Shown here piece after piece: positions 3,635 to 32,654 of a stretch of 46,108 nucleotides of DNA. A program made the position numbers and the translations under genes. The DNA is taken from NCBI GenBank assembly GCA_029717555.1, contig JAMDHS010000017.1, positions 248,001 to 294,108 on the forward strand, written 5' to 3'. Within the stretch, counting starts at the first letter, position 1; each line of letters begins with the position of its first letter. Origin of the DNA: Peribolospora baueri (Eukaryota). Below the pieces are notes generated by a model that did no database searches, had not been told where the DNA came from, and saw only the letters and a list, made by a program, of their open reading frames with translations.

Positions 3635-4201
3635 GGTGCCCGGAGCAAACGGAAGCGAGGCGGGGTGGGCCTATAGGTTTCTTCTCCCTTCCGTGTCGCT
3701 TGTGGACCGGCTCCCGCTTTTCTTTCTCTTGTCGTTCATCTACCTCGTCTATGCTCTTCCCAACAAAATCCTCGCCTCGCTCCAAGCGTTCGTGTATATA
3801 GTAGCTCACGTCCAGTCTGGCAGGAATCGACTCGAGGTAGTTACAGAGACCTCGAAGTTGATCACGCCGGCGCGATGGAGCGAGCGTCCCCAAGTGAATT
3901 CAGCCTCGGACGTTGGCCAAAGACGGCGGTCCTGAGCAAATCGCACCCAGCTCGCATTGCAAACAAAGTGTAGTTTATGGCCAGTCTCACCCGGCCCAAT
4001 CCAGGCGTCGCGGGGGCTTGGTGGAAAACTGGTTGGATATGGTATATGCGAGCATGCGGAGTGCGAAACGTCTGCGAAGACGGGTCCCCCCCGACCTCGC
4101 TTCCTCTCTCTATCCGAAACACGTACGGTGGCTCAGACGATGACGATGGTAAGGAATTATGGGATGAGGATGGGAGATATAGATGCGACGACGAAAGAGT
4201 G

Positions 4202-7167: not shown

Positions 7168-9532
7168 ATGTCGGGTCTCCGAATCGGAGTGGGTCGCGTT
7201 CCCCGCATCCGTCTATCTTATTCGTCCTCTCTCGCCTCCGTCACCTCTTCCTTCCTCACCACCACTACCACCACCACCTCGGCCACTGCCACATCCTTCC
7301 CTTCCCGAGCTCTCGCCTCGTACTTCACTTCCGCACGTACCGGCTCTTCGTCGTCCCTCTTCGCCTCGTCTTCGGCGCGCCACCCTCGCAAGCTCAACAT
7401 GCCGTCCATGCCAAAGGGCCTCTACCAGGCAAACAGCTCCCAAGCCGGCACGCACGCCATGCAGGTGAGGACGAGGAGCTCACTGTAAGACGGGGCGGAG
7501 AAAGCCATCCCCATGGCGGCGATGACCAACAGGGGACGACGCTTCGCGCTTTTGGAGCTGCGGTTGCCGGTGGACATCGGGTGCACCGGAAGCGTGCACC
7601 GGAAAGCTGCGTCGGATGGTTGCAATTCGCCGGACATGCTGCTAATCGTCGTCGATCGTTCGCGTTCGTCGCGTTGTCATATGCGTATCCCTTTCCGCAG
7701 ATCAAGGACAAAGATCTCTTCCGCACTGAATCGTACGTCAATGGCGAGTGGGTCAAGTCCTCCGACAATACCACTTTCAAAGTGGCCAACCCCGCCACCA
7801 ATGCTGCTCTTGGCGAGGTCGCCGACCTGACCCGCGCCGACGTCCGCAAGGCCATCGACGCCGCCGCCGCCGCGTTTCCGAGCTGGAGCAAGACGACGGG
7901 CAAGCAGCGTCATGACTATCTTCGCAAGCTCTTCGACGCTATCCAAGCCAACGCAGATGACCTCGCTCACATCCTCTGTGCCGAGAACGGCAAGCCCCTC
8001 CCCGACGCCAAGGGGGAGATCACGTACGGTAACTCGTTCCTCGAGTGGTTCGCAGCCGAGGCCGTCAGGTCTTACGGTCACATCGTGCCTAGCGCCGTGC
8101 CTGGCGTTCGGAATACCGTCATCAAGCAGCCCATCGGCGTTGCTGGGCTGATCACCCCTTGGTGAGCTGCAGGATATGTGTTCCATCGAACAGAGTCTAC
8201 ATGTGTCTGGAAGGGCTGCGAATCGACCCCTCCCTTATTTCCGTTTTCACACCATCGTGCCCCACCCTGAAGGAACTTCCCTAACGCCATGATCACCCGC
8301 AAGATGGCACCCGCATTGGCGGCCGGTTGCACTGTCGTGATCAAGGCGCCGGCCGAGACGCCCTTCTCCGCTTTGGCCCTCTGCGAGCTCGCGCACCGCG
8401 TCGGCATCCCCAAGGGCGTGATCAACGTCGTGACTGTCGCCAAGGGCGGAGAGAAGGAGAAGGAGGCCGGCAAGGAGATCTGCGAAAACCCCAACGTGCG
8501 CAAGGTCAGCTTCACTGGCAGCACCAACGTTGGCAAGCTCCTCATGACACAGAGCGCCAGCACGATGAAGAAGCTCAGCTTCGGTGAGTCTTAAAGGTGC
8601 GACGGACAGTCAAACAAGTAATTCGAAGCTGACACGCGGCTCCGACCTGGACGGGTTGAACTCTTGGATTTCATCGTCTCGCAGAGCTCGGCGGCAACGC
8701 TCCGTTCATCGTCTTCGGTGACGCCGACCTCGAACTGGCGGTCGCCAGTGCCTTGACCTGCAAGTTCCGCGGTTCTGGGCAGACCTGCGTGTGCGCCAAT
8801 CGGCTGTACGTGCACGAGTCGGTCTATGCCGAGTTCGCCTCCAAGCTGGCTGAGAAGGTGGACGCGTTCAAGGTCGGCAACGGTATGGACGAAGGTGTCA
8901 CTCACGGTCCGCTCATCAACGTCGCTGGCGTTGACAAGGTGGACAGACACGTTCAGGACGCTGTCAAGAAGGGCGCCCAAGTCTTGGTTGGCGGCAGGAG
9001 GGGCGAGGGCAACGTAAGTAGGCCATTTTTGAGAACGTCTTTTGGAGCGTATGTTCACTCGATGCCGATGTCTTCCGCCTCGTTCTCCTCAGTTCTACGA
9101 GCCCACCGTCCTCTCCGACGTGCCCGCGGATTGCCAAATCGCCGACGAGGAGACCTTCGGTCCGGTCGCCGCACTGTTCAAGTTCTCCACTGAGGAAGAG
9201 GTGGTCAAATTGGCGAACAACACCAACGTCGGTCTCGCCGGATATTTCTTCAGCCAGGACGTCAGCCGATGCTTCCGCGTGGCCGAAGCGCTCCACGTGG
9301 GTATGGTCGGCGTCAACACGGGCATCCTTAGCGAGGCTGCCATTCCGTTCGGAGGTGTGCTCGAGAGCGGTTTCGGAAGGGAGGGTGGAAAGACGGGCAT
9401 CGAGGAATACCAGGTTGACAAGGTGCGTTTTTGGATGATCATCTCATCATGCCTGCAAGGATGGCTATCTCGGCTCACTTGAACTTCTCGCCTTTCCTCT
9501 TCACGCAGCTTATCCGCTTCGGCGGAATCTGA
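7168..9532 (+). CDS. UGA2: NAD(P)+-dependent succinate-semialdehyde dehydrogenase (ALDH5/GabD family) with a putative mitochondrial presequence
   Basis: ALDH motifs LITPW|NFPNAMITRK, FTGSTNVGK, ELGGNAP, catalytic Cys in KFRGSGQTCVCANR, EETFGP, PFGGVLESGFGREG; last exon LIRFGGI*. Confidence 0.92.
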
Positions 9533-12810: not shown

Positions 12811-13259
12811 ACAGCTTCTCACCATCTCCTTCAGCCTCGATACGTCTTCCAGTTTGCTGCCAGCTCCGCCTACGCAGCCTCCTTGCATTGGGGCGTTGCG
12901 ACTTTCTTGCACTGCCGGCTTGCACGTTCAGGTTCCTGCCGGGCCGAGTCGTACACCCTCTTTCTCCACTTCCTTCCCTTTCGAACGTGGTGTGCGATTC
13001 GGCGAAGACTCGACTCCAGCGTTTCTCGGACGAATAGTACACCGATCACACGGCCGGCGTGGATCCAACTCGTCGCCCTTATATCCAACTTCCCTCTCGT
13101 CTTTACCGACGGTTACCATTCTGCCCGACGCCCTCTATGCTCGAACCCTGATCGGCGACTCTGATCACAGATGCAGTCTCTACTGCCCTTCCGTCGATCT
13201 TCATCTCCGCAATCATCCGTTTCCCATTGGCTCTGAAGTCGCCTTCCGCGCCCTCCACC

Positions 13260-16200
13260 ATGAACGACCGTGGCTCGCCTGCCGCCTCGTCTTCGGCTCC
13301 TATCCGCCAAAGAGAGCATAGCGAAGGAAGTACCAGCACGAGCGGACAGGTCTCTCAGAGCGCATCCTTAGGCCTGGATGCTCACCGAAGACTCCGCGGC
13401 GACACTGGACAGGTCGATTTCCCCGTTCGGACTCCAAGCGTTTCTTCCTGGGACGGCACGAGCCAGACAGCAAGAGGAGAGCGAGAAGGAGAGAGGACCG
13501 GGTCGAGACCGTCGAAGCGCCTTTCGTCTTTGGCTCGCCACCCGCCCGCGCACCACGTCGGGCAGGAGGTTGGGATCCAGGACGATGGAGGACCAAGGCA
13601 AGAAGCAGAGAAGGACAAGGAGAGGGAGAGGTCACGAAAGAGGAGCTCAAGACATGCAGACGGGAGGGAAAGAGAGCGGGATAAGGAGAGGAAGAAGAAG
13701 AGCTCGTTGCTCACTAGTGAATTTGGCCTTGACATTCTTGGTGGAGGGTCCATTTCCGGTAGCGGAAGTACTGCTGGATTGTCGTCGTCCCAGAACAATG
13801 GTGAGCGAGTTCTTTCTTATCGTCCTTCGGGCTTTATTACTTCAGCTCCTCACGATAGGGCCTGCGTAACTTTCGTTCTTCCTCGGCTCTTTTGAACGCG
13901 TTTCCCTCACAACATGCAGAACCTCTGCGAGACCTGCTGGCATCGGTCGATATCCGCGATGCCCTTCGTCTCATTCATGTCGACTCGTCTCAGCCAGGCT
14001 CCCTCATACCCGAACGACCTGCCGCCGTTCCGATTTGGTCGTCTAGCCATACCAAGCGCACCCCATCTGGCTCCTCTGCAGGCGTGACCACCAACGCTCT
14101 CGAAAGGACGTGGAACGACCGTCACGACAGGGCCAGAACCACGTCCACTCCCGTTGCGACGCCACATACGAACGGCACGAGCACCACTTCCAGGAATGGA
14201 AGCTTTTATGGCACGCATTCGGTGTCGACCACTGATGAACGCCCGCAGAGTCGACAATCCAGCTCTGCCTACCACGCTTCTTCCTCTGGAGCCAAGGGGG
14301 GCGATTCGCCTGGTGCCCTGGCTAAGGAACTCGGAAGTTCGAGGTCGGACGACGGAGAAGGAACACAAGATGCCAAGAAGGCAAAGGAGAAGGGGTTAGG
14401 TTTTGTGAGGTTCAAGAGCTTGAGGAGGAAGGAGAGCGAAAAGCGGGAGAGCCGAAAAGATAAAGGGAAGGAGAGGCAAAAGGAGCCTCTGGCAGAGCCG
14501 ATGGAGGAAAGCGAGAACGAGAACGAGGACGATTTCGAAGGTTCGTTCCATGTGGTCTCGCCGGGACCGTAGTCGAGCTTTTGTTCCTCTGGTGATTTAT
14601 TGACATTTAGTATGCCTCCTTATTCTCTCGCCTTTCATTTTCCAATCGCATCAAAACAGAGAAGGTTCGGTCCTTTGCGTCCAGCGCTTCTTCTTCGACA
14701 CTGAATCGCACCCGTATGGCAAAGGATTTCTTTACGGCACGCTACGACCCGGTATTTGCGGCTTTGGCTGAAGGGTGTCCACCGCCTAGTCTCCTCGCTG
14801 TGAGCCGTTGGCGAAAGCGACTTGAGAGGGCGGACAAGCGACGAAAGAGGATGGAAAGGGCGAAAATGGGAACTGCGCGAGAAAAGGAGCGACGGTCCGT
14901 GGGTCCCTCCAACAATCGAGTGGGCATTCCTTTTGTCACGGGCGTCGCCGCGGGCGCAGAAGAGCGCCTAGACGAGCAGCGGCTTCGACAAGTGTCGTCG
15001 CGAGGCTCGACTCTCGCCAGTCGTACTGACGGAGGCGGCAGCTCGCGACGGTCCAGCGTCAACTATGGTTCCATGAATCCTGTAGGGTTCACAGCCCGTG
15101 ATACTGCCATGGCCACCTCGTCCCGGGCGTCTAGTAGTGTAGGGCTGTCAGACATGGACAAAGCTCTACCTGTCACCAGGGCCGACGATGAAGCGTATCT
15201 CGCACGGTTGACCGGTGTCTCTCCCGGCTCCACGATCTCGGACAAGCTCAATGCGAACTCGGTGATCGATCCCTCGTCTGTTGCTCTCATCGGAGGCGCT
15301 AATTCGTTGGACAAAGGCTCTATGCCGCCGGAGACAGCAGCGCTGTCCATGTCCACTTCAATGCCCGCCTCGGGTCTACTTGGTGCGCTTCGAGCTCCGG
15401 TACGTCGGACAATGGCTTCGTTCCCGTCGATCGGCGCAGCCGCTCAACTAGACGGACATCACAAGCTGTGCGACTGGATGGTGTCCCCAGGAGATCTGGC
15501 GGTGTACTTGGCCTGCAGAGGGAAGGTCGACGCGGAAGAAGGGGAGGAGGTCATGGGCGGGTCATCGTCCTGGCGAGGGTCGGATGCTGGCAGTTTGAGA
15601 GGATCAGGGTTCGCCGAGGCTGGCTTGTTGCCGCCTGTGGAAGTCGTCGACGGCCCGGCTCGACTGCCTTCCACCGAGTTGCTCCACAAGAGTCACAGCA
15701 GGTATTCTTCGCCCAGCTCGATTGCCGTGTCCGCTCGATCAGCGGACGTCCTGTCGTCTGGTCAACCGCCTTCCTCCCGTCACGACAGCAATCTTAGCTT
15801 TGGATTTGGTGGCGACGGCATCGAGCCGAATCGGACAAGCGCAGGTCCTCAAGGACGGAGGAGCACGTTTGGAAGCGTCGATGCCCCCGTTGAACGTCTC
15901 ACCAGCCCTCCCGGAATGCGTGGCATCTCTGATGTATCGAAAGTGGAAGCGAGCTCGGCTTTGTCAAGCTGTTTGCCTAGCTCATCTTCCTCCCCGTACG
16001 GCCGCCCTCGCGCCAATTCTGCCGCCCCCGCGCCTACCTCTCCATCTCCGCTCTCCAATACGTTTCGCTCTCCTGGCCAGACTCGCGTCAAAACGCTGTC
16101 TGCAAGAGAGCAGGGGGAGGGCGTGGCCCGCCGAATGTCCGACGTGGGGACGCGGCCTAACCAGGTGCGAGGCCCTTACGAGGCTGCGCAAGGATCGTCA

Positions 16201-18087
16201 GCATTCGCTGGCTTGTCTAGCGAATGGTTGCCACTTAACATACGTAACAGTCTCGTTCAGAAGCTGAAGCGCGGCGGAAGGGGTCCTGTAAGCCTCTTGA
16301 GTGGACAGCATTGGGGCGACCAGCGCGAAGATGGCGTTGGTGGGGGACACGCCACAGCAGCTGACATGACGAGTGAAAGGAGTTGGAGTGAGGGTGAGGG
16401 CAGAACGTCGATCGCCTCTGGCTTAGGTCTCGGTCTCGGTCTCGGAGCTGCTGTGCTTGCTGGAGGCCAGCAGCAAGATCACCCACGCACATCGACAAGC
16501 TCCAGCCGATCTCGAAGAGCGTGGGAGAGAACGCTGCGAAGAGGTGTGCGGACCAGCTCTCCCGAACTTCGTAGGAAACTACTCTCGCCGTCCTCAGCTC
16601 CGGAAGAAAACTCGGATGTTGCAGCCATCGGAGAGACACTACGACTACCTGACGGCGATGAGGAGCATTCGAGCAGCTTACCCTTGGACGACGACCAACT
16701 TAGAAAGCGTCGAGTGTCTCGCCGATCTCTCCACCGGCGGGCGCAAAGTCAGAAGTATCGCTCCAGCGATATCTTGGGGCAGGAAATCTATAACGGCCGA
16801 GTGGCCGGTGCTGGTGGCCATCGTCGCGGAGCTTCGCAGTGGCCGAGCGCCATCTTTCAGCGACGCGACGTGGGGTTGAGCATCGACTCGCCCGAGCCTC
16901 CCAGCGCTCCACATCTTTCAAGCTCTCGCGAGAGTATTGACGAGGGCCGAGCGCAGGAGAACCTACTGAAGGCTATCAGGGGACAACGCTCTGGTTCTGA
17001 TGGAGCCTCCGAATCTGTGGACGGATGGGCCGAGGTTGCCCATACCATCAGGACGTATGAAGCGTGAGTACCATCATAACTGCAGGCATCGCTGTTGACC
17101 GATTTGCTTGTTCCCATTGCCCATCCTTATACCTTCTCTCTCTTCACTTTCGTCACGCAGTCAGATTAGAGACCTGCAGGCCTACATGGTCAAAGCCGAC
17201 AACAGCATATCTACATCAACGGACAAGACTCGCGGGTATTGCCTGAGCCTCACCGAGCTCGAGCAAAGCACCAAAGCCCAAACGGGGGTACAGCTCGTCT
17301 ATAAGGTTCCTGATCTTCGGTGCTTCAGCGATCAGAGCCACCCTCCAAGCCGTGATTACTCGGCTGTAGCGTCGGCACCACTGGATGACCGTAGCGAGCG
17401 GACGGATCCTCGCGAGCTGAAAAAGTTGGGAAGGAGTCCGTCTGCTATCGCCTCCGCGTGGGAGGCGACCGACTCTTTAAAGCCTTTGCCCAGTGAGACA
17501 ACGGCCGCCGGTGCGGCAGTCGGTCGCATTTCGACGCAGTCGCCTCGATCATCGCGAGCGACCTACCGACGGCGCCACGCACATGACCCTCATTGGGCGG
17601 ACCCAATCGCAGCTGTAACCGATGCGATCCAGCGCTCGAATAAGTTGCGCGACGAGACTGTGGGGATGAGTAGGGAAGTCTACGAGTTGCAGGAGCAGGT
17701 CGCACAGGACATCCGCAAAGCTGTCGTTCGAGTGGACGAGATTCAGCGGGCGATCAACTCGACCCATTTCCAGGAGGTGCGTTTGGCCCATCCTCGGATG
17801 TTGGTCGTCCATTTGATAAACTGTTGACGTTGCTTTCGCTTCCCCTGCTCCGTGTGTCGGCGTCGCAGGTTCGCACCCTGGAAGACCAAATTGGCCGATT
17901 ACAGGCTTCGCAGGACGGATCCGGTATCTACTCCGACCTCTTCTGGGCGGTGCTTTCGTATCTGCTCGTCTTTCTCTTCTCCATTATCCGCATGGTCTGG
18001 TTCATCCTCTTCACTGGCTTCCGCATCGTTCGGTTTCCCGCTGTCGTTGTCTGGGCCGTGCTGCGCTGGGTGCTTTGGTGGAATTGA
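13260..18087 (+). CDS. Large, mostly disordered protein with C-terminal coiled coil and transmembrane segment; possibly Mtc4 (maintenance of telomere capping 4)-like
   Basis: CACCATG start; exons approx 13260-13800, 13920-14540, 14659-17063, 17161-17776, 17869-18087. Conserved-looking islands RTRMAKDFFTARYD..PPSLLAVSRWRK and CDWMVSPGDL; C-terminal coiled coil (..VRTLEDQIGRL) then hydrophobic LFWAVLSYLLVFLFSIIRMVWFILF..LRWVLWWN. The gene is well supported; the Mtc4 call is from recalled architecture only. Confidence 0.6.
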
Positions 18088-18678
18088 GAGCGCCACACAT
18101 CATCCGCGTCTCATCTTATCCGTCGGCTCCTCACCAGTACGTTACGCTTGAGGCTCGCAGGATTGCTTCAAGCCTTCACTCTTTTGCGTTCATCACTCCA
18201 GGGCTTTCTTGTCGGCATGATTCCTTCCAGCTTGAATGTCTTGCAGCAATCGCTGCTACTTCTGCGATCGCTACTCGCTCTTTTCGTCCTCTTGCTTTGG
18301 CCCATCTCTCTGGCTTTGTGTCGTGGCCTTCTTTTCAAGATCTATCTATACCATTCCATAACTGGCTCTCGTCCAATCTATCGAATGCATTCTTCACAGT
18401 GTCGTCGTCAGACCTTTACGCGGGGTGGCTGACTAAGTGCTTTCTGAACGAGTCGTGCTGTCCCGTTCCCTTTTGCCCACTTGGTTACAGTAGCCACCCC
18501 AAGACTCTACATGACATGCGTAAGGCTAGCGATGGCGACGTCCTCGGCAAGTACTCCGAAGGAAAGGGTGACTGTTACTGCACTGGTCTAGCTTAGATCC
18601 ATGCCTCTCCCGGGTTCAGGCTCCAGAAGAGCCGCTCACAGACACCAGCATCTGTGGAATGTCGGTGCGTATGGCGGA

Positions 18679-19110
18679 TCACTTAATCGCCGCGTACTCG
18701 GCCTGCGCACGGCGGGCTTCTTGTCGTAAACAGTCGTGGAATAGGCGGAGGTCGGCGGCGTACTCCTGATATTCCGCCGACCCCGCCTCTAGGCTCCCAC
18801 GTATCTCCAGACGCGGGTGATAGCCTTTGTTGGCGAAGAACGGCGCTACCCCGGTGCACTTGTGCTCCGCGTTATTGTACGCGAACTCGGCGAGCGGGAG
18901 GTGGTCGGTCCAGTCGTCCTGCTGGTAGCCGACGTAGAGTCGGAGATACTGTTCGAGAGTCTGGTTCAGCCTCTCTGTCTGACCGTCCGTCTGTGGGTGA
19001 TACGCCGTTGAAAAGCTCCGCTTGATACCTAGAGCCTTAGTGAGGGCCTCCCAGAACTCATTGACGTATTCCCGGCCGCGCTCCGACATGATGTCCGTAG
19101 GCAGTCGATC
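18679..19110 (-). mobile_element. Ty3/gypsy (Tf1/sushi-like) integrase core fragment
   Basis: LPTDIMSERGREYVNEFWEALTKALGIKRSFSTAYHPQTDGQTERLNQTLEQYLR..WTDHLPLAEFAYNN..TGVAPFFANKGYHPR; no zinc finger, RT or LTR nearby. Confidence 0.92.
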
Positions 19111-19462
19111 ACGCCGCGAGCTAATGTTGCAGATTAGCCTGAAAGCCAGTGGACTCGACTGTAGTAGATCTTCGCGACCGTCAGTTAAGAATGAGCCTCG
19201 CTGCCCATTCCTCACTACGGCGCGGCGTAGCGTTCGTCGATTTGCAGGATTGAAAAGGCCACGGCTCAATCCGTGTGCTCGCCCTGTTCTCGCCTCTGTC
19301 CTTCGTCAGTCAAACTTCCCTCTGGGCTAATCTGTCACATGCCTGGACTAATCGTGGGGAGAAGGCGAGAAGTCATTCAAAGTCATCAGAGGGTTCATTC
19401 ACAACAGATACAAGGCATGGCGGGTCATATATCATTACAGGACGGGAGGGCCGCATGGGTAT

Positions 19463-22155
19463 TCAACGTGAGGTGCTGTGCGAGCCCTGGGAGGCAAGCT
19501 TGCTGAGAAGACGATCGAGGAATTGGTTCGCCTCGTGCACATCATCGCCTCCGGAACGCGAGCGTCTGGTCAAGTCTCCTCCATCGCCCTGCTGACCATC
19601 CTCGTTTGCGTCAGATGTAGCAGGGTGCGAAAAGCCCAGTAGATGCGGATACGATAGCAAGAGATTCTGCAAGCTTCGGGCGTGAAATGCAGCAACCGAC
19701 CGTGGACTGCCAAGAGGAGGACCTGGCAGTCCTGGGCTCGCCTGACTGAAGGGAGATGGGGCGGGGAAAATGCCGTTCGGAGGTCCAGGCGAGAACGAAG
19801 AACTTGCATGCATCAGCAAGGAAGGCGCGTTCGTATTGCTTGTTCCGCCTCCTGAGCCCAGCTGCGGATCCAGAGCGAACTGCGCGAGGTACGCGGCCGG
19901 GTCGTGCAGAGAGGGCGAGGAGTCGACAGTGTGGCCGCCATTGTTTGCTGCTGGGCCGTGTAAACCGCTGTGACCGGCTCCAGGAGCCTGGGATGGGCCG
20001 ACGCCTTGTCGTTCGGCCACGATCTCATCGATTACGCGATACAGCTCACTGTCGTCAGCTGGAAGTTGCGAATCGAGGAGGCCGCGAACAGCGGAAGCTG
20101 TCATGGAATCCGAACCGACCGGATCGTCTCCTGGACCATGCAAACCTTCGTCAGGGCCTCTTGGTCCTGTCAGAACGTCATCCATGCCGTCATTGGCGCG
20201 ACCTTCTCGGTTTTCAGCTTCTTCACTTTCGTCGTCGTCGCCTCTCTTGCGCTTCTCGGGGCTTGTGTTTCCGGCGAGCCCGCCACTCCTTCGCCTCTCC
20301 ATGCCAAGAAGCCGGCTGACGTTGGCCTGACGGTAGTTGGGACGATTCCATTTTTTACCAAAAGTCCGAGCGACGTCCCATTGAGTGGCCTCCGGATGTG
20401 CTCCTACGTACGCCAGCAACTCGTTCTTCTGGGCTGCCGTAATGCGGGGATGTCTTGACTGAGAGGAGCTCCCTCGCGCTGGTGAGGCAGATGTCGCAGA
20501 AAGCGATGAAACAGCGTGAATTTGGGAGTCTCGGGGCGCCATACCGACGTCCTGGAAGTCGGACTGGTCGTTCAGGGACGGTCCGGCCGTGTGGTTTCCC
20601 GGCACGGCCAGAATTGATGGACGGGTTGACGGATGATCAGTCGCCACGAACGTGGCTCCGGTGCCCAAACCAGGGTCTCCCTCTCTGCTGGTGTCCGCGT
20701 GATCCGCCATGACGGCACGCTCGCGCTTCGTCTTCTCCTTCGACTCGCAGATGATGGAGCTGACGGTTCCTTGCGAGAACTTTGGGCGCTGCCAAAGCTC
20801 GCGAAAATGTCTAGCAATCTCCCATTGGCTCTTGCCAGGATTTTCATTTGCCATGTCCAGGACGGCTTGCCGTTGGGCAGGAGTTAGAGGTAGATGTGCT
20901 GTGCGATGGGCGGAGGTCGAAACAGGCGATGTCTTCGATGTTGCTTCCGTTCGAGTGACACCGGAGTGATTGACACTTGCCGCCCTATCCCTCTGCTCGG
21001 CTGACATTGCTTCTGCCTCCTTTCCCTTCCCTTTGCTGGATGCGGCACTTTTGTTCCAGCTCGCCCAACTGCTCCCACCTTTTCTGCGACTGCTGGCACC
21101 CGGCGTCCCTCCGGCCGTCTTCTCCTTTTCTTTGCGAGCTGAGACGATCACAGCCGATACCTGGGCTTGGACAAATCGCTGTCGGTCCCACTTGACGCGG
21201 AAGTGATTGGCCACGTCCCCTGAAGCGAGGGAGGATGGAAGGAGCTGACACCGCTTAGTGTGCATACCGATTTGCAACCTGTGCAGGAAATAGGCACCGG
21301 CGACGTACATTGTGTCATGTCAGGGTGCTCATCTACGAAGGTGAGAAGTTCGACCTTCTGTTCCGGCGTAAGACGAGGATCTCGATTGGCTGACGAAGAG
21401 GCTGACGCCCTCGCGCGGTGAGACGACGGGAGCTCTGTTGTATATAATTGTTGCAATCCGAGCCAAATGATAAGTATTGGTGCCCTGTACAGGTTGTTGT
21501 TCTCCCGCATCTTGCTCACCTATGGATGGATCTAGATCGGACGGTATTGTTGCCCAGACCGAAATACTCGCGGTCGGAGTTTCATTGTACCCACCACTAA
21601 GACTACGCCGAGATGCCGGTGACGACACGGTTGTGTTTCCGTTGCTGACAGCTGTGCGCACGTGCGTATTCGTTGCCAACGACGATTCTGCGGTGCGAGA
21701 GGTGGGCGCGATAGTGTCGTCGCTGTTTCTCTTTTCTACGAGCCTTGAGACGTTCTCAACGGGCTCAGATGGATTGTTAGCGGAAGACGCCCGTCTCTCC
21801 TGGGATTCCCGGTCCGTGCAAATTATCCTCGAGACGTTCGCTTGAGCCAGTTTCTCGCGACCCCAGACTCTGCGAAAGTGGTGAGCAACGTCCCATTCTG
21901 ACAGTGACCAGATGAAGAGATGTCAGCACGTCCTCGCCTTGTTGCCCAGAATCGTGCGAAAGCATTTTGAACGTCGTGGTGCTAGACACCCTCGCGAGAG
22001 CTCCGACTCCTGCCACGACATCTAAACCGTCTGAAACGCGCATCTGCTCGTGTTCCTCTTGAAGATCAACACTCACGAGTCATCTCGGGGTGTTTCTTGA
22101 CGAACGCAAGCAGCTCTTCGCGCTGCGCCGCCGTTATTGCCGGATCGCGGGCCAT
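19463..22155 (-). CDS. Protein with four tandem CENP-B/Abp1 N-terminal-type HTH domains; likely pogo/Tc5-transposase derived, no DDE domain
   Basis: Exons 22155-22077, 21897-21520, 21434-21309, 21219-19463 join in frame (2340 nt, 779 aa; all GT-AG, phase 1). Four repeats with consensus (I/L)T.AQ(R/K).ELL.F...HP..TQW(D/E)(V/I)A.HF...W.R....Q..VS.II. Confidence 0.8.
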
Positions 22156-22456
22156 AGGGACGAGTTGCACGGAACCGTATAAATATCGAGCTGGCCGTGT
22201 ACAAGTATAAGAACGAGAGTAGGTTGAGTACGACGGCCGACGAACAGACGCCTGCACATCGGCGATGCGCGGGCATACCGGATATCAGACTATCAATCAT
22301 ACATCGATCGATCACACTGGGCCGTGCTCAAGTTTTAAGTCGTGCTCGAGGAGAAGGTCTCCTTAGTACACGAAGAGACTCTGCCCGACTACTGTACAAG
22401 TCTTAGTTTTGCAATACCTTCCAGGATCAATGGGGGTGCCAAATCACGTGCTGAGC

Positions 22457-25400
22457 TCAATAGCACACGTCATCCAGGACGTCTTGGCTTTGTCGCAGTA
22501 ATCTGGCCGCCAAGCCAGACACCTTGGCTCGCGCCGTCTGATACCTTGTGGATGCAAGGTCCCTCTGCAGATCGCGAAGCAAAGGGCCGTATAGGGCTGG
22601 CTTGCGGGACAAAATTGCAAGGAAGGCGTGCTTGCCAAGCCTGCTCAAAGCCAAAAGCTCACGTCAGGTCCAACGAGCAACCAAGAAATGAGGGCGCTCA
22701 GCATGATTGTGTCGGCGCTCACCAGACCACGCAATTGTGTTGCACAAGACATGAGACTTCCATATTCCTCGTGACGGCTCCTTGTGCCCGATTACGTAGG
22801 GCGATGTAACTGTAATGTGCCGCCTGCTCGATCGCATCTGTGTTCCCAGCGTTTGGCAAAGATAAAATGGACGCTGCGTCATCAGTCGCCTCCTCCTTCG
22901 CACTAGCTTCTGCGTCCGCTAGACTCACTCAGGAAGAACTTCGGCCGTTTCTTTGGGTCCGTCCCCCAGGAACGCAGGTACGTGTGGTACTTCATGGCTG
23001 TTATAAGAAAGTTTTGATACACGTTCGTGTAGACGCCCGTAATACTGTTGAACGACGTGTCATTGAAGATGAGGTGCGACTTGCTCTTCGCAGCCCTGGT
23101 AGAAGGCGTGGACAACATGGGCGCCGGAAAGTGAGACTGAGCAAGGGCCATGAGAAAAGAAAAAGAACAGCATTCCTAACAACGGCACTGCGACGCACTG
23201 CAGCATTTTGTATATGAAGGTATTGCCCGGTCGACGACTGTATTCGACCGTTAACGTGTCGCCAACGTCTTTCCCCCATACAGCTCAGCAGTTGTCAGCC
23301 CCTCAAAACCACTGCCAAAGCCGCCAAGAGCATCCAAAGACAACTACTCACGAGACGCAGTATAGCGGCTGAGATCAGCACTTACATGCAACCTACTGGT
23401 GTCAATCAGGTAGCCACACCACGGAAACTCTGGAGGAAAGAATAAAGAATCAGTATTGTCTGATCCAACGAGCCGGTTGGCGGGGATTTGACCGGAGATT
23501 ATAACCAAATCTCACCTGCGGTTTCGACCTTCGCCACCCTCTCGATTCCGTCCAATGAAATATCAAAATTGACCAACGTCTTCTCATGGGAGATAAAGGC
23601 GCCGTATTCAGAGTGACCTGAAGCCAACAGAGTATGATGAACACTGGCATTCTCCCTATGAGTACCTTCGCGGAAGGGCTCACCTTGGTTCATAGTCCGC
23701 AGAAATTCGATAGCGTGAGCCTTGTTGGCCGATACAAACAAGAAGTCATCTACAAAACGGAGCAGTATCTGGAAAAAACACAAATTGCTTGCGGTCAGCA
23801 TAGCATATCACCAGAGAGTGAATATGCCTGCCACATTTCCCTCACATTGTCCGCATTATTGACGTAACCGAGCTTGTGCTTCTCTAGATCAGCATAAAAG
23901 AAGCTGGTGGCAATAACGTGGCCGGGTCAGGCTAGCGAAAAGCTCAACTCGAGAGGAAAGCATGCGAACCTGCAAAGAAGAGTCGACAGCACTGATCCTT
24001 GGGGAATGCCGACCTTCTGTTTGTAGAAATCCGCACCGATCTGAAACGAAAAGGGTCAATTCAGACAGGATTCGGGTGACGAATGTGCTACGCAACATAC
24101 CTTAATGATATTCTCTGTGATATGCTCTTCAAGAAGCTGGAGGACGGCCTTCCGCTTCTGAAAACTGTAGACCACCTACGTGCAGGAAAAAAGCAAGGAG
24201 TTAAGCCGAACAAACTCCAACCCTAACTTGAACGGGTTTGACGTACCTGGTCAACGAAGATCGTATGTCGAAGAGAGGCCGCGAGCTCTGCAGCTAGTTC
24301 AGGGAATGGGATATGTTCGTCTAGAGACGAGAGACGTTAAATGCATCAATGATCTCGCACACACGAACGAAGGAACCGCCTATGCACGCACAATCTGGAC
24401 AAGCTCGCTGCATCCGACTTTTGCTGAATCTCCCCGCAGTTGGAACAACCTGCGAGTATTTTTGAAGCATGTACGCGTCCTGCATGGCCCACAGGTTGTC
24501 TACCTCAGCTGCCCGTTCTCAATGATAAGCAGCGCGACCAGCGCTGCCACATACCTCACTCAACAACGTCCTGACGATGTGCAGCAGCTTCGCCTGGTCG
24601 ATGGTGTCGAAGCAGCATCGAACGTCGACCTTCACAAAATACAACTTGGGCCTGTAGCATGTTGAACGTTGTACACACTAAGTCGTTACGCCCAAGTTCC
24701 TTCGGAGTGGCATCCTTGCGTAACACACCTGGCAGAACCGCCTTGTCCAATCCGAAGTTGAAAAGCTTTCAACTTCTGATAAATCTCGTTAGGGCCAAGA
24801 ACCGAGGCGCCAAGTAGGTTTGGATGACGATTCTGGACAGTGTCAGATGGATGATCAGCCAGTTGTTCTCCCTGACGAGGGCTTGTCATATATGAGATGA
24901 CATACCTTCTCGAATGTCAATATGTGGAAAGCGGATTGAAGGATTTGGTTGATTGAAGGAGCCAAGCTAGTGCCATCATCAGAAACCTTGACGGCAGGAC
25001 GTCGTTGAGCGTTCAATCGGCTAAACAATTCCACCCTCGATAAAAATCCATGCATCATTCTTACCATTGCTCTGCCTCGACGTCGCAGATTTACAATCGG
25101 TCGGACCCCTGTCTCCTTCGGCAGAAGGCGAACGTAGGAATAACCCAGCTGTCGAGCAGTGAGCTTCTTCTTGGCCTCATCCTGCCCGAATTAGAAGTGA
25201 GAGTGTCAGCAAACGTCACAAAAAACATACAAAGCTATGCTCACCATCTCGAGGGGCTCAAATACGCTTTGCGAGAGTCTAGCTACTATCGGCCGACAGA
25301 TTGTTGCCCAATCGTCTTGACGGAAGTACAAGACCCGGTTCCGATATGCTGACGACTCGGTGACGTAGAAGGTTGTCTGTGAACAAGACGTAGAGACAAA

Positions 25401-28255
25401 TATCAGCATGCCAAAAGAGATCGCTCGAGTAAGTTAGACAGAATATATCTTACACGAAGAAGCGGGATAAGCCAACCGTCGAAAAGCCAGTAAAGGAGTT
25501 CCGCGATTAACTCCCTGCGTTTCGTCTCCTCAGCGACGTTTGTGCGTTGGGACCGTGCCCTAGCCTTTGCCGGCAAAAGCCATTCACAGTCGGAGGGATG
25601 AAAACTCTGCAAGACAGCATGCAACGTGAGTGTCTCGAAACGTCGAAGACGGATGAACTTGTCGATATCTGGGAAGGTATCAAAGAATATGAATTCAGTC
25701 TTCCACGTCTACTACGTTCACCGCAGAAATGTGACATAGAAAGAGATACAAACGGTGTGAAACGACGTCGAGATTCCTTTGCGAGCCCCATAGCTCGAAC
25801 GGAATGACGTTCTTGACCACGGCGATTGCGAATCTCGAGACCTGTTGAACAAGTAATAAAAGACATGACTTGCGGAAACGCTACGAAGGTCTGCAAGAGT
25901 AAACTAACCAGACCGGCGCTTTGAGCAAATTCCTTGAACTTTGGCCTTTCTTTTCGACGTTCATTAGCAGCTCGCCTTCCCGCAGTTTGCTGTATCTGGC
26001 TGGCGTGGGATACGTCGAAGGTTATGTCTGAGCGAGAGACTTGAGTGCCTGGTACAAGAACGCTCGACATAGTCGAGAGACTGGCGTTGGTGCCGGTAGG
26101 CGCCGTGCCGTCTATTTGCGGAGGCTCCTCCATCAGTTCCTGTCATGAAATCATCATTCGGTACCAGACGGAAAATATAAGCCCTTACTTCTGAGGTCCT
26201 GAGCACTGTCAAGAACTCTCAGAATCACGCACCAGAATTTCCGCCTTCGTACCTTCGGTCAAGATGTTCTCGGATCTTTCAGATTCATCACCCTGTCTAC
26301 GGCGTTGAATGGCACTCGGGCAAAATATGGAGAGCATCCGCCTATAGTTGCATGCGTCGTGTCGCTTGATAAAGCGGCGGATCAATCGCAGTACGCACTT
26401 GAGCCGCTGCGGGGTCTTTACAGCACCAAGGGCCTGCCGGAATGATTGCATCAGACTCTTCGTTCCAGCATCCGAACCTACAGAGGGACCCTTTGCTCAC
26501 CTTGATTTCCCGCTCCATGCCTTCATAATCTGCCGTTTGCGCAGAAAAAGACCTCCGTTTCGTCCTGCCAACGAAGACGTTAGGCAACCCGTACTGACGA
26601 GGGAAGATGTATTTAAGTAGGTGCAGCGCTCTGCGTTGTAAGGCAGCGTCGCACTTTGGTCGTATCCCTTCCTTCCTTTCAACTGACGTGGTGGAGTCTC
26701 CTGAGAGATCCACGGGAACTCCGCCAGCCTCTACCCTAGCTTGTGACGTCTCCGTACTGAAGAGCCCGTGGCTTCGGCGAAAAGGTGTATTTTTGCCCTG
26801 ACTATTTCGGTTCAAGCCGTCTGAGTAGCAATATCACGCGCAGCCGATGTTAGAGAGAAGCATCAATACACATGCACTGAAATGTTCGACAGGCTTGATA
26901 CTCACGCATGAGGGGCAATCCAGCCACAACCTTCCCTGACCTATCTCGGACAGGGCGGGCATAAAAGAGGCGTGACCGGACAAAAACAATGTCCGACGGA
27001 CCTTTACTGCAAAGCAAAGCCCTTGGGAAATGAGAAGACTGGATGAAGGCATTGCGACAGCAGTCTTCCATGACAGCTCACATCGCATTGGCCCTCGTAT
27101 CGTTAGCCTTGCGCTTGATACCGCCTCCTGAATTGCTCGTAGAGCCCAACGAGCCTGAAGTGTTCGCTGAGCTCTGCCGGCTCAGAGAACGACACGCCTG
27201 CGCTCTTTCGTCCTTCGCGGGAGAGAGCTTGGTACAAGGCAGTCTCGCAGGCACGACATTTGATATAGAATCTGGCAAAAGTCCACCATCGCCAAACGCA
27301 TTTTTACAGTTTATACGTCCTCGATCTTGTCCAAGGAATCCATCACCGAAAGACCTTGATGTTTTTCTTTCTGGTTCATAGTCGAGCAGGGGGCCGCAGA
27401 CCTGGTAGAAGCAGCCGTTGGGCAGAGGCAGAAAAAGAGACGTTTGACACAGAATATGCAAGAGAGGGGCGGGTCCGAGGCTGAATAACGCCAGCAATGT
27501 TGAATTGTGCAAGGGTCAGTGACGAGTCTGATCAAGACATCGGTGAAAGGATCATACCGTTCGAGTAGCAACTTCCACTCGGAACTTGCAAGGCTGGTGA
27601 CGATGGTATTGGTGAAGAAGTTCGCGACGCCCGTTCGAACAAAGGTTGGTTTGGAAGTTTCACCCCGCTTTTGAGCCTGTAAGAGGGCAGCCAGGATTAG
27701 ACGAAAAGGTACAGGTTCTATCAAAGGTCTAATAGCCAGAGCTTAGAAAACGTCGAGCTGCGTACATCTCGATAGCCAAGACAAAGTACGTTTGTGCCAT
27801 GCGACCTTTCCTTGCTGCGAGAGAGGAGCTTAGAATGGGCGCGGTCGATAATCTGACCTCACCAGCGTCAGCGTCAATAGTGTTTGGTCAGTCGCTCACG
27901 AATAGAAGCGAGAGGGCGTGCCACACACCTCTTCCATGGAGACGCCAGTATCGTCCCGCCTGAGGTCCTTCCAAGCTCCCTTGAGATAAGCCATATCTTC
28001 TGGGCTTGCTCCACGATCGTCCAGACCTACTAGGGCGTTCATTAACATGGACTTGTAACGGTTGTCATCACTCGACGTGAATACCGTCTGGAACAGGGCA
28101 GACGGCAAAACAATTTGAAGGTAGGCCGGAAGCGGAAGGACCAAAGCATAGAAGCGGCTAAGAATGGCGCTACTGACAGAGGTCGACGGCGAAAGGCTGT
28201 TTCTGTCTGCTGAAGGCGGAAGCCGAAGCCGGCCTGTGCCTTTGCTCTCCCCCAT
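22457..28255 (-). CDS. TERT: Telomerase reverse transcriptase, multi-exon, apparently full length
   Basis: TEN motifs NVLCLGYR and LFLPLPNGCFYQVCG; CP motif RHDACNYRRMLSIFCPS; T motif FYVTESSAYRNRVLYFRQDDW; motifs 1/2 YVRLLPKETGVRPIVNL; A YFVKVDVRCCFDTI; B' GIPQGSVLSTLLC; C LLRFVDDFLFVS; E FPWCGYLID; CTE ends ..VLDDVCY*. Confidence 0.96.
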
Positions 28256-28527
28256 GCTCTCGTCCTCGTCGTTCGATGGCTGTGAAACAGGATGGGTTTT
28301 GGTCAGCTAAATGAACGCGACCGCGTAAAGTACCTGCACCCCAGTTGCCACCGCAGCCAGGATGCTTCCCACGGGCCGGGGCTTGGAAGTTTCCGAGTCA
28401 GTGGAAGACGTACACAGTGAGTGACTTGAAGAACGACTCGTGCGCCAACGTCGGCGTTACTCTCTCTGTCTCCTCCCTTGTTCGTTCCTTTTAAATCTCG
28501 TTTCAGAGAGAAAGTTGTCGGGTCGCC
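28256..28527. promoter_or_regulatory. Probable bidirectional promoter shared by TERT and IleRS
   Basis: Only 272 bp between the divergent start codons (28255 minus, 28528 plus). Confidence 0.55.
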
Positions 28528-31500
28528 ATGTCGTTCCCAGCGCACGATGGTGAGTGGTTAGCTGACTGGTTTAGTACTACGCCCAGGAAAGCTGATCGCG
28601 GTCGGTATCTCATTACTGCTTGCGCAGTGTCCGCCGTGTTCAACTTCGCCGAGGAGGAAAAGAAGGTGCTGGCTTATTGGCGAGAGATCGATGCTTTCAA
28701 CACTCAGCTCAAGCAGTCGGAAGGGAGGAAACGGTTTTCCTTCTATGATGGTCCCCCATTTGCTACCGGTCTGCCCCACTACGGTCATTTGACTATGGGC
28801 ACAGTCAAGGTGAGGCTCAAGAGCCCGAGAGCATGCCTGGTCACCTTGTTCTCAAATTTGCTTGCTGCTTTCTGCTTGTGCTGCTGTGACAGGACATTGT
28901 GACACGTTATGCCCATGCTTCCGGTTACCACGTCGAGCGCAGGTTCGGTTGGGACTGTCATGGACTGCCCGTCGAGCACGAGATCGACAAAATGCTTGGC
29001 ATCAAGGGCAAGGAGGATGTCTTAGCCATGGGCATCGACAAATACAATGCAGAGTGCCGGAAGATCGTCATGCGCTACTCGACGGAATGGCGAAGGACAG
29101 TGGAGAGGATGGGAAGGTGGATTGACTTCGATCACGATTACAAGACCATGCATACAAGCTTCATGGAGAGCGTGTGGTGGGTCTTTGGACAGCTCTTCAA
29201 GAAGGACCTAGTGTACCGAGGATTGCGCGTCATGCCGTATTCCACGGCTTGCACCACGCCTCTTTCTAACTTCGAGGCTGCCTCGGACTATCGCGAAGTG
29301 CAAGACCCTGCTGGTTAGTCCAGTTGCTTGATCCCCTGCGTCCGCTTGACTTATTGCTTCTGTAGTGTGGTAGCTTACTCATTGCCGTGCGCTGCCATGT
29401 GCTGCAGTCACCATCTCCTTCCCGCTTCTCTCCGATCCCTCCACGGCTCTTCTGGCTTGGACGACAACGCCTTGGACGCTGCCTTCAAACCTTGCCCTCT
29501 GCGTACATCCTGACTTTACCTACATCAAGGTCTTCGATGAGGAGAGGAAGCAGAATTTCATTATTCACGAGAAACTTCTCACGACTCTGTACAAGGACCC
29601 GAAGAAGGCCAAATTCAAGAAGGTCGGCAGCTACAAAGGCGCCGAGATGGCAGGCTGGAAGTACGAGCCCGTATTCGATTATTTCAAAGATCAGGTGGGA
29701 TCTCAGGCCTCGGCTCCTGCTTCAACACGTCGAAGCTTATTTTCTTCTCATTGCCACATCAGTACCAGGATAAGGCTTTCCGAGTGTTGGTGGACACGTA
29801 CGTCTCGGATGACAGTGGTACCGGCATTGTTCACCAGGCCCCTGCCTTCGGTGACGATGACCACCGTATCGCTATTAGCAATGGTGTCGTGCGTAACGAC
29901 GAAATGCCTCCTTGTCCGGTCAACGAATCTGGCAAGTTCACGGCGGAAGTTAAGGATTACGCTGGCGTTCACGTGAAGGTAAATTTGTTGGAGTGCACAG
30001 CATCCTAAAAGAGCAAGGGCAAATAAATGACATCTTGACTTCCGTCGTCGTCGGTGGTACAGGAGGCGGACAAGCAGATTCAGAAAGACCTTAAAGCTCG
30101 CGGTCGACTTATCGTGCAAGAGACCATTCGCCACCCGTACCCCTACTGTTGGCGGTCTGGGACGCCGCTCATCTACAAGGCTATCCCCGTCTGGTTCGTG
30201 CGCGTCCAGCCGGCTGTCGACAAACTAGTTGAGAATAACATGCAGACGCGATGGTGAGAGCGATATGTTCGGATCATTCTTCTTGCGTCATTTTTCTTGT
30301 GCGCTCCTTCCCTTCTGATCCTCTTTGTGATGCTTGTCCGCAGGGTCCCGAATGCGGTGAAGGAGAAGAAGTTTGGCAATTGGCTGGCTAATGCCCGAGA
30401 CTGGAACATTTCACGCAATCGCTACTGGGGTACGCCCATTCCACTTTGGGTTAGCGACGACCTGCAAGAGGTCGTCTGCATCTCTTCCGTCGCCGAGCTC
30501 GAGCGACTTTCTGGTGTGACCGGTATAACCGACCTGCACCGTGATAAGATCGATCACATCACCATCCCGAGTCAAAAAGGTACGGGTGTATTGAGGAGGA
30601 TCGAAGAAGTTTTCGACTGCTGGTTCGAGAGCGGAAGGTAAGAGCATTCTTCTCTTCCATTTAAGAGGGTACCAGCTGTCTGTGATGTCGCGTTGCTGAA
30701 AACTCGGTTCATTTTGCAGCATGCCGTACGCACAGGTACACTACCCCTTTGAGAACAAGGAGAAGTTTGAGGCCTCCTTCCCAGCCGATTTTGTCTCAGA
30801 AGGCCTCGATCAGACCCGTGGCTGGTTCTACACCCTCCTCATTCTCTCTACCCACCTCTTTGGTACGGCACCGTGGAAGAATCTGATCGTGAGCGGGCTG
30901 GTCCTGGCAGCGTGAGTAATCGTCTCGGACCACCCGTTTAGCATGTTGGCACACGCTTACCGGTTTAATACGTTGACAGGGATGGAAAGAAGATGTCGAA
31001 GAGCTTGAAGAACTACCCTGACCCGACCGGTATCATGGATATGTTTGGCGCCGATGCTTTGCGGCTCTACCTTATCAACTCTCCTATCGTCCGCGCTGAG
31101 AACCTCAGGTTCCGCGAGGACGGTGTTAAGGAAGTCGTCAGCCGTGTCTTCTTGCCTTGGTTGAACTCCTTCCGCTTCCTGCTTGGTCAGGTTGCCCTCC
31201 TGAAGAAGGAGACGGGCATTGACTTCAAATATGATGGCCATGCGCCGAAGTCCAACAACGTGATGGACAGGTGGATTTTGGCTCGATGCCAAAGCCTAAT
31301 CAAGCTTGTGAAAGAGGAGATGAACGGTGAGGTTACTATATTAGGTCCTTTCTAGGCGGAAAATAGTACATTAATAGCTGACTTGACAATTCGACCCGTC
31401 CGCGCTTGCAGCCTACCGACTTTACACGGTGGTTCCCCGCCTTCTGAACCTCATCGACGAGCTCACCAATTGGTACATTCGCTTCAATCGCAGGCGGCTC

Positions 31501-32654
31501 AAGGGCGAGAACGGACCGGATGACACTTTCTTGGCTCTCAACTCCCTCTTCGAGACTCTCTTGACACTCTGTCGTACGATGGTCAGTGTTTTGCTGTCCC
31601 CACTTCTCTGAGACTTCATGCTTTGTTTAATCGTTCTCATCTTCACGTATTCCCTTTCTCAACGGCAGTCATCCTTTACCCCTTTCCTCACCGAGAATCT
31701 GTATCAAGGTCTCCGTGCCTTCATGCCCCAAGCCGACGGGGACGACGATGTCCGTTCCGTTCACTTCCTGAGCTTCCCCGAGGTGAAGGAGGAGTACTTG
31801 GATCCTCTGATTCAGCGTCGCGTACAGAGGATGCAGACAGTCATCGAGCTCACGAGGACTGTCCGTGAGCGGAGGCGCCTTGCCCTAAAGGTAAGCGCCA
31901 ACTTTCTCCATAGTCGTCTGGGGCATGTGGGCCTGATACATATTTTTGTGCAATGATTTTCTTACAGACGCCTCTGAAAGAACTGGTTATCTTCCACCCA
32001 TCTTCCGAGTACCTGGAGGACGTCAAGACGCTTTCCAAATACGTTGAGGAGGAGCTGAACGTGCGGGAGGTCACCTTCACCTCTGACGAAGAGCAGACTG
32101 GCATACGCTACAAGGCGACTGCGGATTGGCCGGTGCTGGGACGCAAGCTGCGCAAGGATGTGACGAAAGTCAAGAACGCCCTACCTAACCTTCTCAGCGG
32201 CGATGTTAAGGGCTACCTCGAGACAGGCAAGGTCCAAGTGGATGGGATCGAGCTCGTTCAGGGTGACCTTAACGTGGTGCGTTTCGTTGAACTGGAGACG
32301 GGCAGCCGATTCGACACAAACACGGACTCGGACGTCGTTATACTCCTTGACATCAAGGTGCACCCGGAGCTCGAGGCCGAGGGTACGGCGAGGGAGGTGA
32401 TCAATCGTATCCAACGGCTTCGGAAGAAGGCGGGCCTCCAGGCGACGGATGAGATCGATGCGTACTACCGCTTCGAGCAAGGTCTTGGGGAGGCTCTGGA
32501 GGAAGTTATCAAGAGTCAGTCCGATCTCATCGCCAAGGCCATTCGCAGAACACCGATGAACGAGGCGCAGAGGCCGAAGACGGCGAAGGTCCTAATCGAG
32601 GAGGAGCAGGAGATCGGTGATACCACATTCGTTCTCTCCCTAGTGCCAGCGTAG
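28528..32654 (+). CDS. ILS1: Cytosolic isoleucyl-tRNA synthetase
   Basis: [16 protein letters not shown] (HIGH motif), [68 protein letters not shown]-terminal [20 protein letters not shown]; stop at 32654. Confidence 0.97.

Follow-up and report, generated by a model that had tools for sequence, protein, structure and literature searches.

A single-copy fungal gene directly downstream of TERT encodes a putative protein with four helix-turn-helix modules

Introduction

What kind of protein is encoded by a gene that directly follows TERT in the fungus Peribolospora baueri and that repeats one small helix-turn-helix (HTH) unit four times? The gene lies on the minus strand of a 46,108-nucleotide (nt) stretch of contig JAMDHS010000017.1 (assembly GCA_029717555.1), which was analyzed as a whole, is called the window in the following and supplies all coordinates. 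The initial annotation, made from the letters of the window, had recorded four exons that splice in frame to 779 amino acids (aa), and its coordinates, exon count and protein length all proved correct. It had interpreted the gene as a candidate domesticated pogo transposase. The reading favored here, to which we assign a probability of roughly 0.6, is that of a single-copy, lineage-restricted fungal host gene, coding for a 779-aa, largely disordered and putatively nuclear protein whose four HTH modules would make it a multi-HTH DNA binder. Established so far is an ordinary-looking, lineage-restricted, putative DNA-binding gene.

Repeat units and gene structure

The predicted protein carries a set of four units of about 54 aa, which share 31-57% pairwise identity and 14 invariant columns out of 54, including T-x-x-Q, the proline of the first loop, Q-W, A-x-x-F, W-x-R and Q-x-x-V-S. 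When each unit was used as a phmmer query, the other three were recovered at 25.2-55.0 bits. The top score in a control of 1000 shuffles of the protein was 7.0 bits, and the repeats therefore stand far above chance. Each module is laid out as helix 1, a loop with the conserved proline, helix 2 (T-Q-W-D/E-V/I-A) and a recognition helix (Q-x-x-V-S); the last two are separated by a conserved seven-residue insertion that includes W-x-R. The recognition-helix motif Q-A-N-V-S-R is common to units 1 and 4 and differs in units 2 and 3. In their DNA, the units match each other over 15 nt at most, which indicates that the duplications are old, and a profile built from the four units found zero further copies among the 1162 six-frame open reading frames (ORFs) of the window.

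Linkers of 113, 78 and 94 aa, rich in Ser, Thr, Ala, Gly and Pro (60-62% S/T/G/P/A/Q/N), separate the units. Behind unit 4 follow a basic P-E-K-R-K-R motif at aa 515-520, which resembles a nuclear localization signal (NLS), and a tail of 276 aa that is net acidic (36 D/E vs 20 K/R).

The exon structure can be judged from the same repeats. The predicted spliced coding sequence (CDS) of 2340 nt starts with the first in-frame Met codon, contains zero internal stops and ends in a large fourth exon, which has a single open frame of 618 codons. All three introns have GT..AG borders, and retention of intron 1 would stop the frame after 4 codons. Units 1 and 2 are each interrupted by an intron; once introns 1 and 3 are removed, their pattern is exactly that of the uninterrupted units 3 and 4. 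Because this removal rebuilds two repeat units, the splice model gains good internal support, and the gene is predicted to be intact and spliceable in the four-exon form on the minus strand.

Introns 1 and 3 occupy nearly the same position of the repeat in units 1 and 2; both are in phase 1 and they lie one codon apart, and units 3 and 4 are free of introns. This pattern suggests one of two histories: the unit already had its intron when it was duplicated, with a later shift of the intron by one codon, or introns were gained in parallel at a preferred site.

Copy number and selection

Four DNA runs from one study match the window. Two of them come from an organism that may be its source, and two from a sister species, which has 57-58% of the sampled words. 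Contig depth and sequence differences were compared over positions 18000-23500. The gene has a depth of 124.6 vs 117.9 for its flank in run X1, 102 vs 103.6 in X3 and 77.5 vs 76.2 in X4, and an integrase remnant beyond its stop codon (18736-19103) is found at 2-4 times the flank depth in all three runs. The gene is thus present in a single copy and the remnant is a dispersed repeat. That the gene might be part of the adjacent retroelement was considered and rejected, the remnant being multicopy and the gene at flank-level depth. No inverted repeats bracket the gene either; the pairs found in the search are 14-31 nt long, 71-93% complementary, scattered and chance-like.

In the sister species, one contig covers positions 19015-23500 with 67 differing letters and 30 gap letters, which corresponds to a divergence of about 1.5%. 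The differences compared comprise 40 of 99 substitutions and 12 of 14 insertions or deletions (indels) and are complete up to position 20192. Within the CDS from 19463 to 20192 (codons 537-779), 13 differences were counted, 9 of them synonymous and 4 non-synonymous, with a pN/pS of 0.15; two changes in codon 715 jointly keep Leu. Under neutrality, 4 or fewer non-synonymous changes among 13 would be expected with a probability of 0.0013, or of 0.004-0.007 if a transition bias of 3 to 6 is assumed. Among the indels listed, those within the gene (21441 and 21445, seen in X3 only) fall in intron 2. From the stop codon to the repeat, a distance of 356 nt, there are 10 substitutions and 3 indels. 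The C-terminal third of the protein (codons 537-779) is under purifying selection in the annotated frame. The initial annotation had cautioned that the locus might prove to be multicopy with flanking terminal inverted repeats, or to evolve neutrally; the first is contradicted by depth and flanks, and the second by the substitution pattern of the C-terminal third.

Predicted fold

AlphaFold2 was run without an alignment, as a single sequence, on the 584-aa translation of exon 4, in which residue numbers are converted to full-length numbering by adding 195. The model has a mean predicted local distance difference test (pLDDT) score of 47.7, and confidence is concentrated in two islands that coincide with units 3 and 4. 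Unit 3 reaches a pLDDT of 88-96, with helices predicted at residues 113-125, 131-142 and 149-176, and unit 4 reaches 70-92 in 10-residue blocks, with helices at 261-273, 279-289 and 297-311. The linkers and most of the tail remain below 50. The picture of four HTH-like copies set in disordered linkers, already drawn in the initial annotation, is borne out. As to the two other features it had pointed out, the NLS-like motif is present and the C-terminal amphipathic helices appear with low confidence only (pLDDT 41-61). Two copies of the tail (aa 690-779), modeled together, gave a score of 0.17 with the mark at 0.32, a value that speaks neither way on self-association.

A Foldseek search with the 584-aa model returned 74 chains, of which 0 matched at E <= 0.001. 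When these 74 chains were superposed with VIA-align, HTH domains ranked first among the best 50 of 74. The leading match was the HTH of a phage small terminase (Z 8.1, root-mean-square deviation (rmsd) 1.6 Å over 54 residues), and others were the ARR1 Myb-type domain (Z 7.6), the Pax6 paired domain (Z 7.0), a POU homeodomain (Z 6.8), a LuxR-type domain (Z 6.7), SETMAR (Z 5.5), Mos1 (Z 5.2) and CENP-B (Z 5.1). The HMG-box chains that Foldseek had listed (Sox17, HBP1, TOX, SOX2) do not appear among these best 50 of 74. Units 3 and 4 would accordingly be assigned to the tri-helical, homeodomain-like HTH fold class, the fold being HTH-like in one of two predicted models. The structure matches, as far as the model can be trusted, describe a tri-helical HTH-like module and point to no particular family.

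Unit 3 (20678-20905) has a pLDDT of 88-96 in the chain that also contains unit 4 vs 63 when modeled alone. Having a paralogous repeat in its chain seems to make AlphaFold2 more confident about this unit.

HTH families and a pogo origin

Family profiles were consulted in a Pfam scan of the intact units 3 and 4, with matches listed to E <= 10; units 1 and 2 were entered as intron-split halves. All sub-threshold matches of units 3 and 4 are to HTH families. HTH_32 scores 19.8 bits with unit 3 (E 0.0012) and 14.8 bits with unit 4 (E 0.042) at a cut-off of 33.7. HTH_ABP1_N (PF18107) aligns with unit 3 over profile positions 4-49 of 61 at 12.8 bits (cut-off 22.5, E 0.097), and unit 4 gives no match to this profile at E <= 10. 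CENP-B_N (PF04218), HTH_psq (PF05225), HTH_Tnp_Tc5 and HMG_box are unlisted at E <= 10 for both units. Units 3 and 4 cannot be placed at threshold in the IS630/Tc1-type families (HTH_32, HTH_Tnp_IS630) or in the Psq HTH family. A Myb/SANT identity was rejected, as the spacing of the Trp residues is 10 instead of about 19 and no Pfam match was obtained. Unit profiles compared with PDB sequences gave nothing below E 0.02: a MarR regulator was matched at 0.021-0.1, HMG boxes at 0.15-1.5 and CENP-B (1bw6) at 0.91-1.5, and the 13-14 PDB sequences with E <= 10 include no Abp1 chain. In its class, the module is a tri-helical HTH in the broad sense, together with the DNA-binding domains of IS630/Tc1/pogo transposases, CENP-B/Abp1 and Psq. 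It attains the threshold of no curated family, and an origin from a transposon is possible and unproven.

Relatives were sought in an exhaustive phmmer search with exon 4 among 1,835,955,588 representative proteins at E <= 0.001. The sole match was P0001 (E 7.9e-4), a metagenomic singleton of 429 aa that consists of 7-8 contiguous HTH units and nothing else. Pfam assigns HTH_Tnp_IS630 to seven stretches of P0001 (E 1.2e-28); many other HTH families match it less strongly, CENP-B_N among them (E 1.5e-6). A local hidden Markov model built on the four fungal units recognizes 7 of the 8 units of P0001 (profile positions 10-33, 111.5 bits in total), and hhalign, comparing the two unit alignments, aligns all three helices with 97.5% probability and places a seven-residue insertion in the fungal units. 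The similarity is suggestive of a place for the fungal units among transposase-type HTH domains; it does not count as independent evidence, P0001 having been selected as the top match of the whole library.

Other searches returned little. In the ESM Atlas, unit 3 fell near clusters carrying DUF4817 (0.79) and HTH_ABP1_N (0.77 and 0.75), scores that lie below the meaningful level and that shuffled proteins attain in one case of three; residues 80-330 of the exon 4 translation gave no usable match. A word-indexed search with exon 4 yielded none at E <= 1e-3 among 8000 scored candidates, a search of longer proteins with a profile of units 3 and 4 (151 candidates) none at E <= 1, and a scan of metagenome contigs with exon 4 produced 45 pattern matches, 0 of which were confirmed by tblastn. 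The blank word searches say little, because a neighboring 818-aa Ser-rich ORF (14611-17067), taken as a control, was likewise without a match; either the collection lacks the lineage or the search is overwhelmed by words of low complexity. In the parts of the literature that were accessible, no described fungal HTH-only array of this kind was found, and the supplements of PMC10799480 and PMC7386202 may list candidates.

The alternative that survives best is the one proposed in the initial annotation. In this reading, the gene is a domesticated pogo-family transposase, in which an Abp1/CENP-B-type (Lemi/Tigger-like) first HTH was quadruplicated, the Tc5 HTH and the DDE domain were lost and introns were gained, and its product binds repeats such as transposon ends, centromeric DNA or telomeric DNA. 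Such an origin is unlikely and deserves to be taken seriously. Unit 1 sits at the extreme N-terminus, like the first HTH of these transposases, the weak alignment of unit 3 extends over almost all of the HTH_ABP1_N profile, that same domain occurs in two of the three top-scoring named ESM Atlas clusters, and P0001, the only database match, is itself a transposase-type HTH array. Fungal pogo transposases with an HTH_ABP1_N N-terminus exist, according to one study (PMC7386202), and an HTH-only array has a precedent in the Psq superfamily, which another describes as closest to CENP-B and transposases (PMC11178893). Against this stand family-specific scores that are all below threshold, with HTH_32 outranking HTH_ABP1_N, the lack of any CENP-B_N or HTH_psq match to units 3 and 4, the poor CENP-B scores and missing Abp1 chain in the PDB comparison, and ESM scores that shuffling can reproduce. 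HTH_Tnp_Tc5, DDE_1 and CENP-B_dimeris left no trace in the translated exons 2, 3 and 4 (E <= 1), and outside the units the pLDDT of the exon 4 model is almost throughout below 50, in keeping with neither an intact nor a degenerate DDE core. Known fungal pogo-derived proteins (the Cbp1/Abp1 family), in contrast, keep a DDE-type domain, as stated in a preprint (bioRxiv 10.1101/2022.12.06.519325). The N-terminal HTH at family threshold, the Tc5-type second HTH and the DDE core that would mark a member of the CENP-B/Abp1 family were all absent from the parts searched, the first in units 3 and 4. The repeats that could be assessed, units 3 and 4, show essentially no match to CENP-B/Abp1 profiles, an outcome that the initial annotation had itself named as fatal to its proposal, and its scenario of a lost DDE domain, a lost second HTH and a quadruplicated first HTH finds no positive support.

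TERT and the genomic surroundings

The position of the gene raises the question of a functional link with its neighbor. TERT lies upstream on the same strand, as judged from matches to Telomerase_RBD at 25403-25708 (E 1.3e-16) and to TERT_C at 22903-23175 (E 3.9e-8), and the initial annotation was right to place the gene directly downstream of it. At 22457-22663, the last 27 positions of the TERT_C profile are weakly matched (E 0.023), so that the stop codon of TERT probably lies about 300 nt from the ATG at 22155. TERT as a whole is predicted to span about 22457-28306 on the minus strand in many short exons, and an ORF at 23499-23807 contains a motif-C-like F-V-D-D-F-L-F.

It could be imagined that the protein binds telomere repeats or subtelomeres together with telomerase, or that it is co-transcribed or co-regulated with TERT. 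The same-strand tandem arrangement would suit this view, as would the contig of the sister species, which extends over 19015-23500 and hence places the gene beside the 3' end of TERT there too, and a multivalent binder would be well adapted to tandem repeats. Adjacency in one genus-level genome pair is uninformative on function, however, and the unit is not of the Myb/telobox type by Pfam. A TERT-linked function is very improbable, and the telomeric or centromeric role suggested by the initial annotation had the adjacency to TERT as its whole basis.

The remaining neighborhood is that of an ordinary, gene-dense chromosomal arm, neither a subtelomere nor an island of transposable elements. The remnant of a Ty3-type integrase occupies 18679-19305 on the minus strand, about 160 nt past the stop codon of the gene (rve E 2.8e-4, sub-threshold); in the sister species this region is rearranged, with 18689 and 18959 joined on opposite strands. 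Farther on, long Ser-rich open frames on the plus strand (13152-18596) converge on the gene, one of them with 818 codons at 14611-17067. These frames gave no Pfam match at E <= 0.01 and no homologue by word search, and they probably belong to a large disordered protein. Housekeeping genes are found at 3360-3935, 4346-5296, 6957-9193, 28500-32654, 40093-41461 and 44707-45672; the identities represented are an FKBP-type isomerase, a SNARE protein, an aldehyde dehydrogenase, an isoleucyl-tRNA synthetase (DUF5915 C-terminal domain), a glutamate-cysteine ligase and a RAD23-like XPC-binding protein. The features of the gene itself are collected in Table 1.

Table 1. Predicted features of the four-HTH gene, in window coordinates
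Feature	Position	Strand	Remarks
Whole gene, ATG to stop	19463..22155	-	4 exons, 3 introns, 779 aa
Exon 1	22077..22155	-	79 nt; N-terminal half of unit 1; donor GTGAGT from 22076
Intron 1	21898..22076	-	179 nt, GT..AG, phase 1, within the Gln codon of T-Q-W
Exon 2	21520..21897	-	378 nt; C-terminal half of unit 1 and linker 1
Intron 2	21435..21519	-	85 nt, GT..AG, inside linker 1
Exon 3	21309..21434	-	126 nt; end of linker 1 and N-terminal half of unit 2
Intron 3	21220..21308	-	89 nt, GT..AG, phase 1, within the Trp codon of T-Q-W
Exon 4	19463..21219	-	1757 nt including stop; end of unit 2, units 3 and 4, acidic region, C-terminal tail
HTH unit 1	21809..22149	-	aa 3-56, spans intron 1
HTH unit 2	21134..21384	-	aa 170-223, spans intron 3
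HTH unit 3	20738..20899	-	aa 302-355, uninterrupted
HTH unit 4	20294..20455	-	aa 450-503, uninterrupted
Basic NLS-like motif followed by acidic stretch	20168..20263	-	aa 514-545; putative role, from composition only
C-terminal tail with two predicted amphipathic helices	19484..19705	-	aa 700-717 and 751-773

Weighing the readings

Two further explanations touch the nature of the module and of the gene. The units could be degenerate HMG-box-like modules that bind bent or distorted DNA instead of reading sequence as an HTH does. In the PDB comparison, the unit profile matches HMG boxes over the loop and helix 2 (Abf2 E 0.15-0.16, an SRY/HMGB1 chimera 0.2, HMGB1 0.84-1.5), and the order of a helix, a Pro-containing loop and a helix ending in Trp is common to both. 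These matches span 20 residues only, however, and Pfam did not list HMG_box for units 3 and 4. The confident part of the single-sequence AlphaFold2 model superposes best on HTH domains (Z 5-8), and hhalign brings all three helices into register with IS630-type HTH units. An HMG-like module appears very improbable. Equally so is a non-working gene, whether its open frame is decaying or due to chance or its exons were joined wrongly: the lack of a homologue in protein databases would agree with it, but exon 4 holds an open frame of 618 codons, removal of three canonical introns restores two repeat units exactly, the synonymous excess relative to the sister species is significant and the listed indels within the gene fall only in an intron.

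Several points weigh against the favored reading of a lineage-restricted multi-HTH DNA binder. The DNA binding of the four-HTH protein is inferred in its entirety. The curated threshold of an HTH family was never reached, the best value being 19.8 bits vs 33.7 for HTH_32, and in the PDB profile search HMG boxes (E 0.16-1.5) score as well as CENP-B (E 0.91). The evidence for the fold comes from one single-sequence AlphaFold2 model, and a Z of about 8 for a small helical domain reflects a common arrangement. Unit 3 folded on its own has a mean pLDDT of 63.1 and a best match of Z 4.1 among 48,161 chains, the top ones without a clear HTH, although a search with a model of such low confidence is uninformative. 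The match to P0001 is strongest over helices 1-2, a generic motif, P0001 is also matched by MarR, HTH_24 and others, and it was picked as the best of 1.84 billion proteins. The splice model is derived from genomic DNA, all four runs that carry the stretch being DNA from one study. The selection figure covers codons 537-779, a range outside which the HTH units lie, and the result on indels in the CDS holds for the 12 of 14 that are listed.

If the favored reading is correct, each of the four modules would read a short DNA site, and the protein could bind clustered or repeated sites in a multivalent manner. The basic motif beside unit 4 would direct nuclear import, and the acidic stretch and the conserved C-terminal helices may recruit partners or mediate self-association. 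On this view, the four-HTH protein would be a transcription or chromatin factor with sequence specificity. Its DNA binding, its location in the nucleus, its multivalency and the function of its tail are what we infer.

Significance

A more far-reaching interpretation is that the gene represents a new transposase-derived HTH sub-family (of Abp1/pogo or IS630/Tc1 type, with the W-x-R insertion), captured without the catalytic domain, amplified fourfold, kept under selection in fixed tandem with TERT and reading telomere-associated or retroelement repeats. In this full form the proposal is distinctly unlikely. Were it true, the protein would be a fungal counterpart of Pipsqueak-type arrays and would illustrate a domestication route that leaves the first HTH only. 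To our knowledge, HTH-array proteins are rare outside animals.

The separate elements would each be instructive. The unit may define a new HTH sub-family, given that no curated threshold was reached and a single marginal relative was found among 1.84 billion proteins. DNA binding, if true, would provide a clean example of multivalent recognition achieved by repeating one small module along a disordered chain; a transposon origin would add a fungal case of domestication by the DNA-binding domain only, and a functional link with TERT would offer a new handle on telomere biology in this lineage.

Comparison with known systems

Among the systems that resemble the four-HTH protein, the Drosophila Pipsqueak/Psq superfamily likewise contains a repeated array of HTH units of about 50 aa in a host protein. 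Psq has four repeats, which follow directly upon each other and are combined with a BTB domain. In the fungal protein, by contrast, the units are 78-113 aa apart in disordered linkers and without a match to HTH_psq at E <= 10, and Psq is an animal protein. P0001 shares with the fungal protein the character of an HTH-only array. It differs in that its units adjoin each other and recur at intervals of about 50-55 aa, lack the W-x-R insertion and score strongly as IS630-type, none of which applies to the fungal units.

Two tethered tri-helical HTH modules that read adjacent sites are known from Tc1/mariner transposases (SETMAR, Mos1) and from Pax6. These proteins combine two different sub-domains over a short linker, whereas here four paralogous units are strung along long disordered linkers. 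Superposition of units 3 and 4 together on SETMAR, Mos1 or Pax6 gives an rmsd of 13-15 Å, which means that the individual modules alone match.

The last comparison is with Abp1/Cbp1, Cbh1 and Cbh2 of Schizosaccharomyces pombe and with mammalian CENP-B, which are pogo-derived proteins of the centromere and of retrotransposon silencing. They share with the fungal protein an N-terminal tri-helical HTH of the same broad class, to which the weak, near full-length HTH_ABP1_N alignment of unit 3 bears witness, and within this class the Abp1-type HTH, like the fungal units, has a longer connection from helix 2 to helix 3 than that of CENP-B, a point in favor of the pogo reading. Abp1 and CENP-B are nuclear DNA-binding products of host genes, and the fungal protein would putatively be likewise. 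In their architecture, one first HTH is followed by a Tc5-type second HTH and a DDE-type domain, with a dimerization domain in addition in CENP-B, whereas the fungal protein is built on four copies of one unit.

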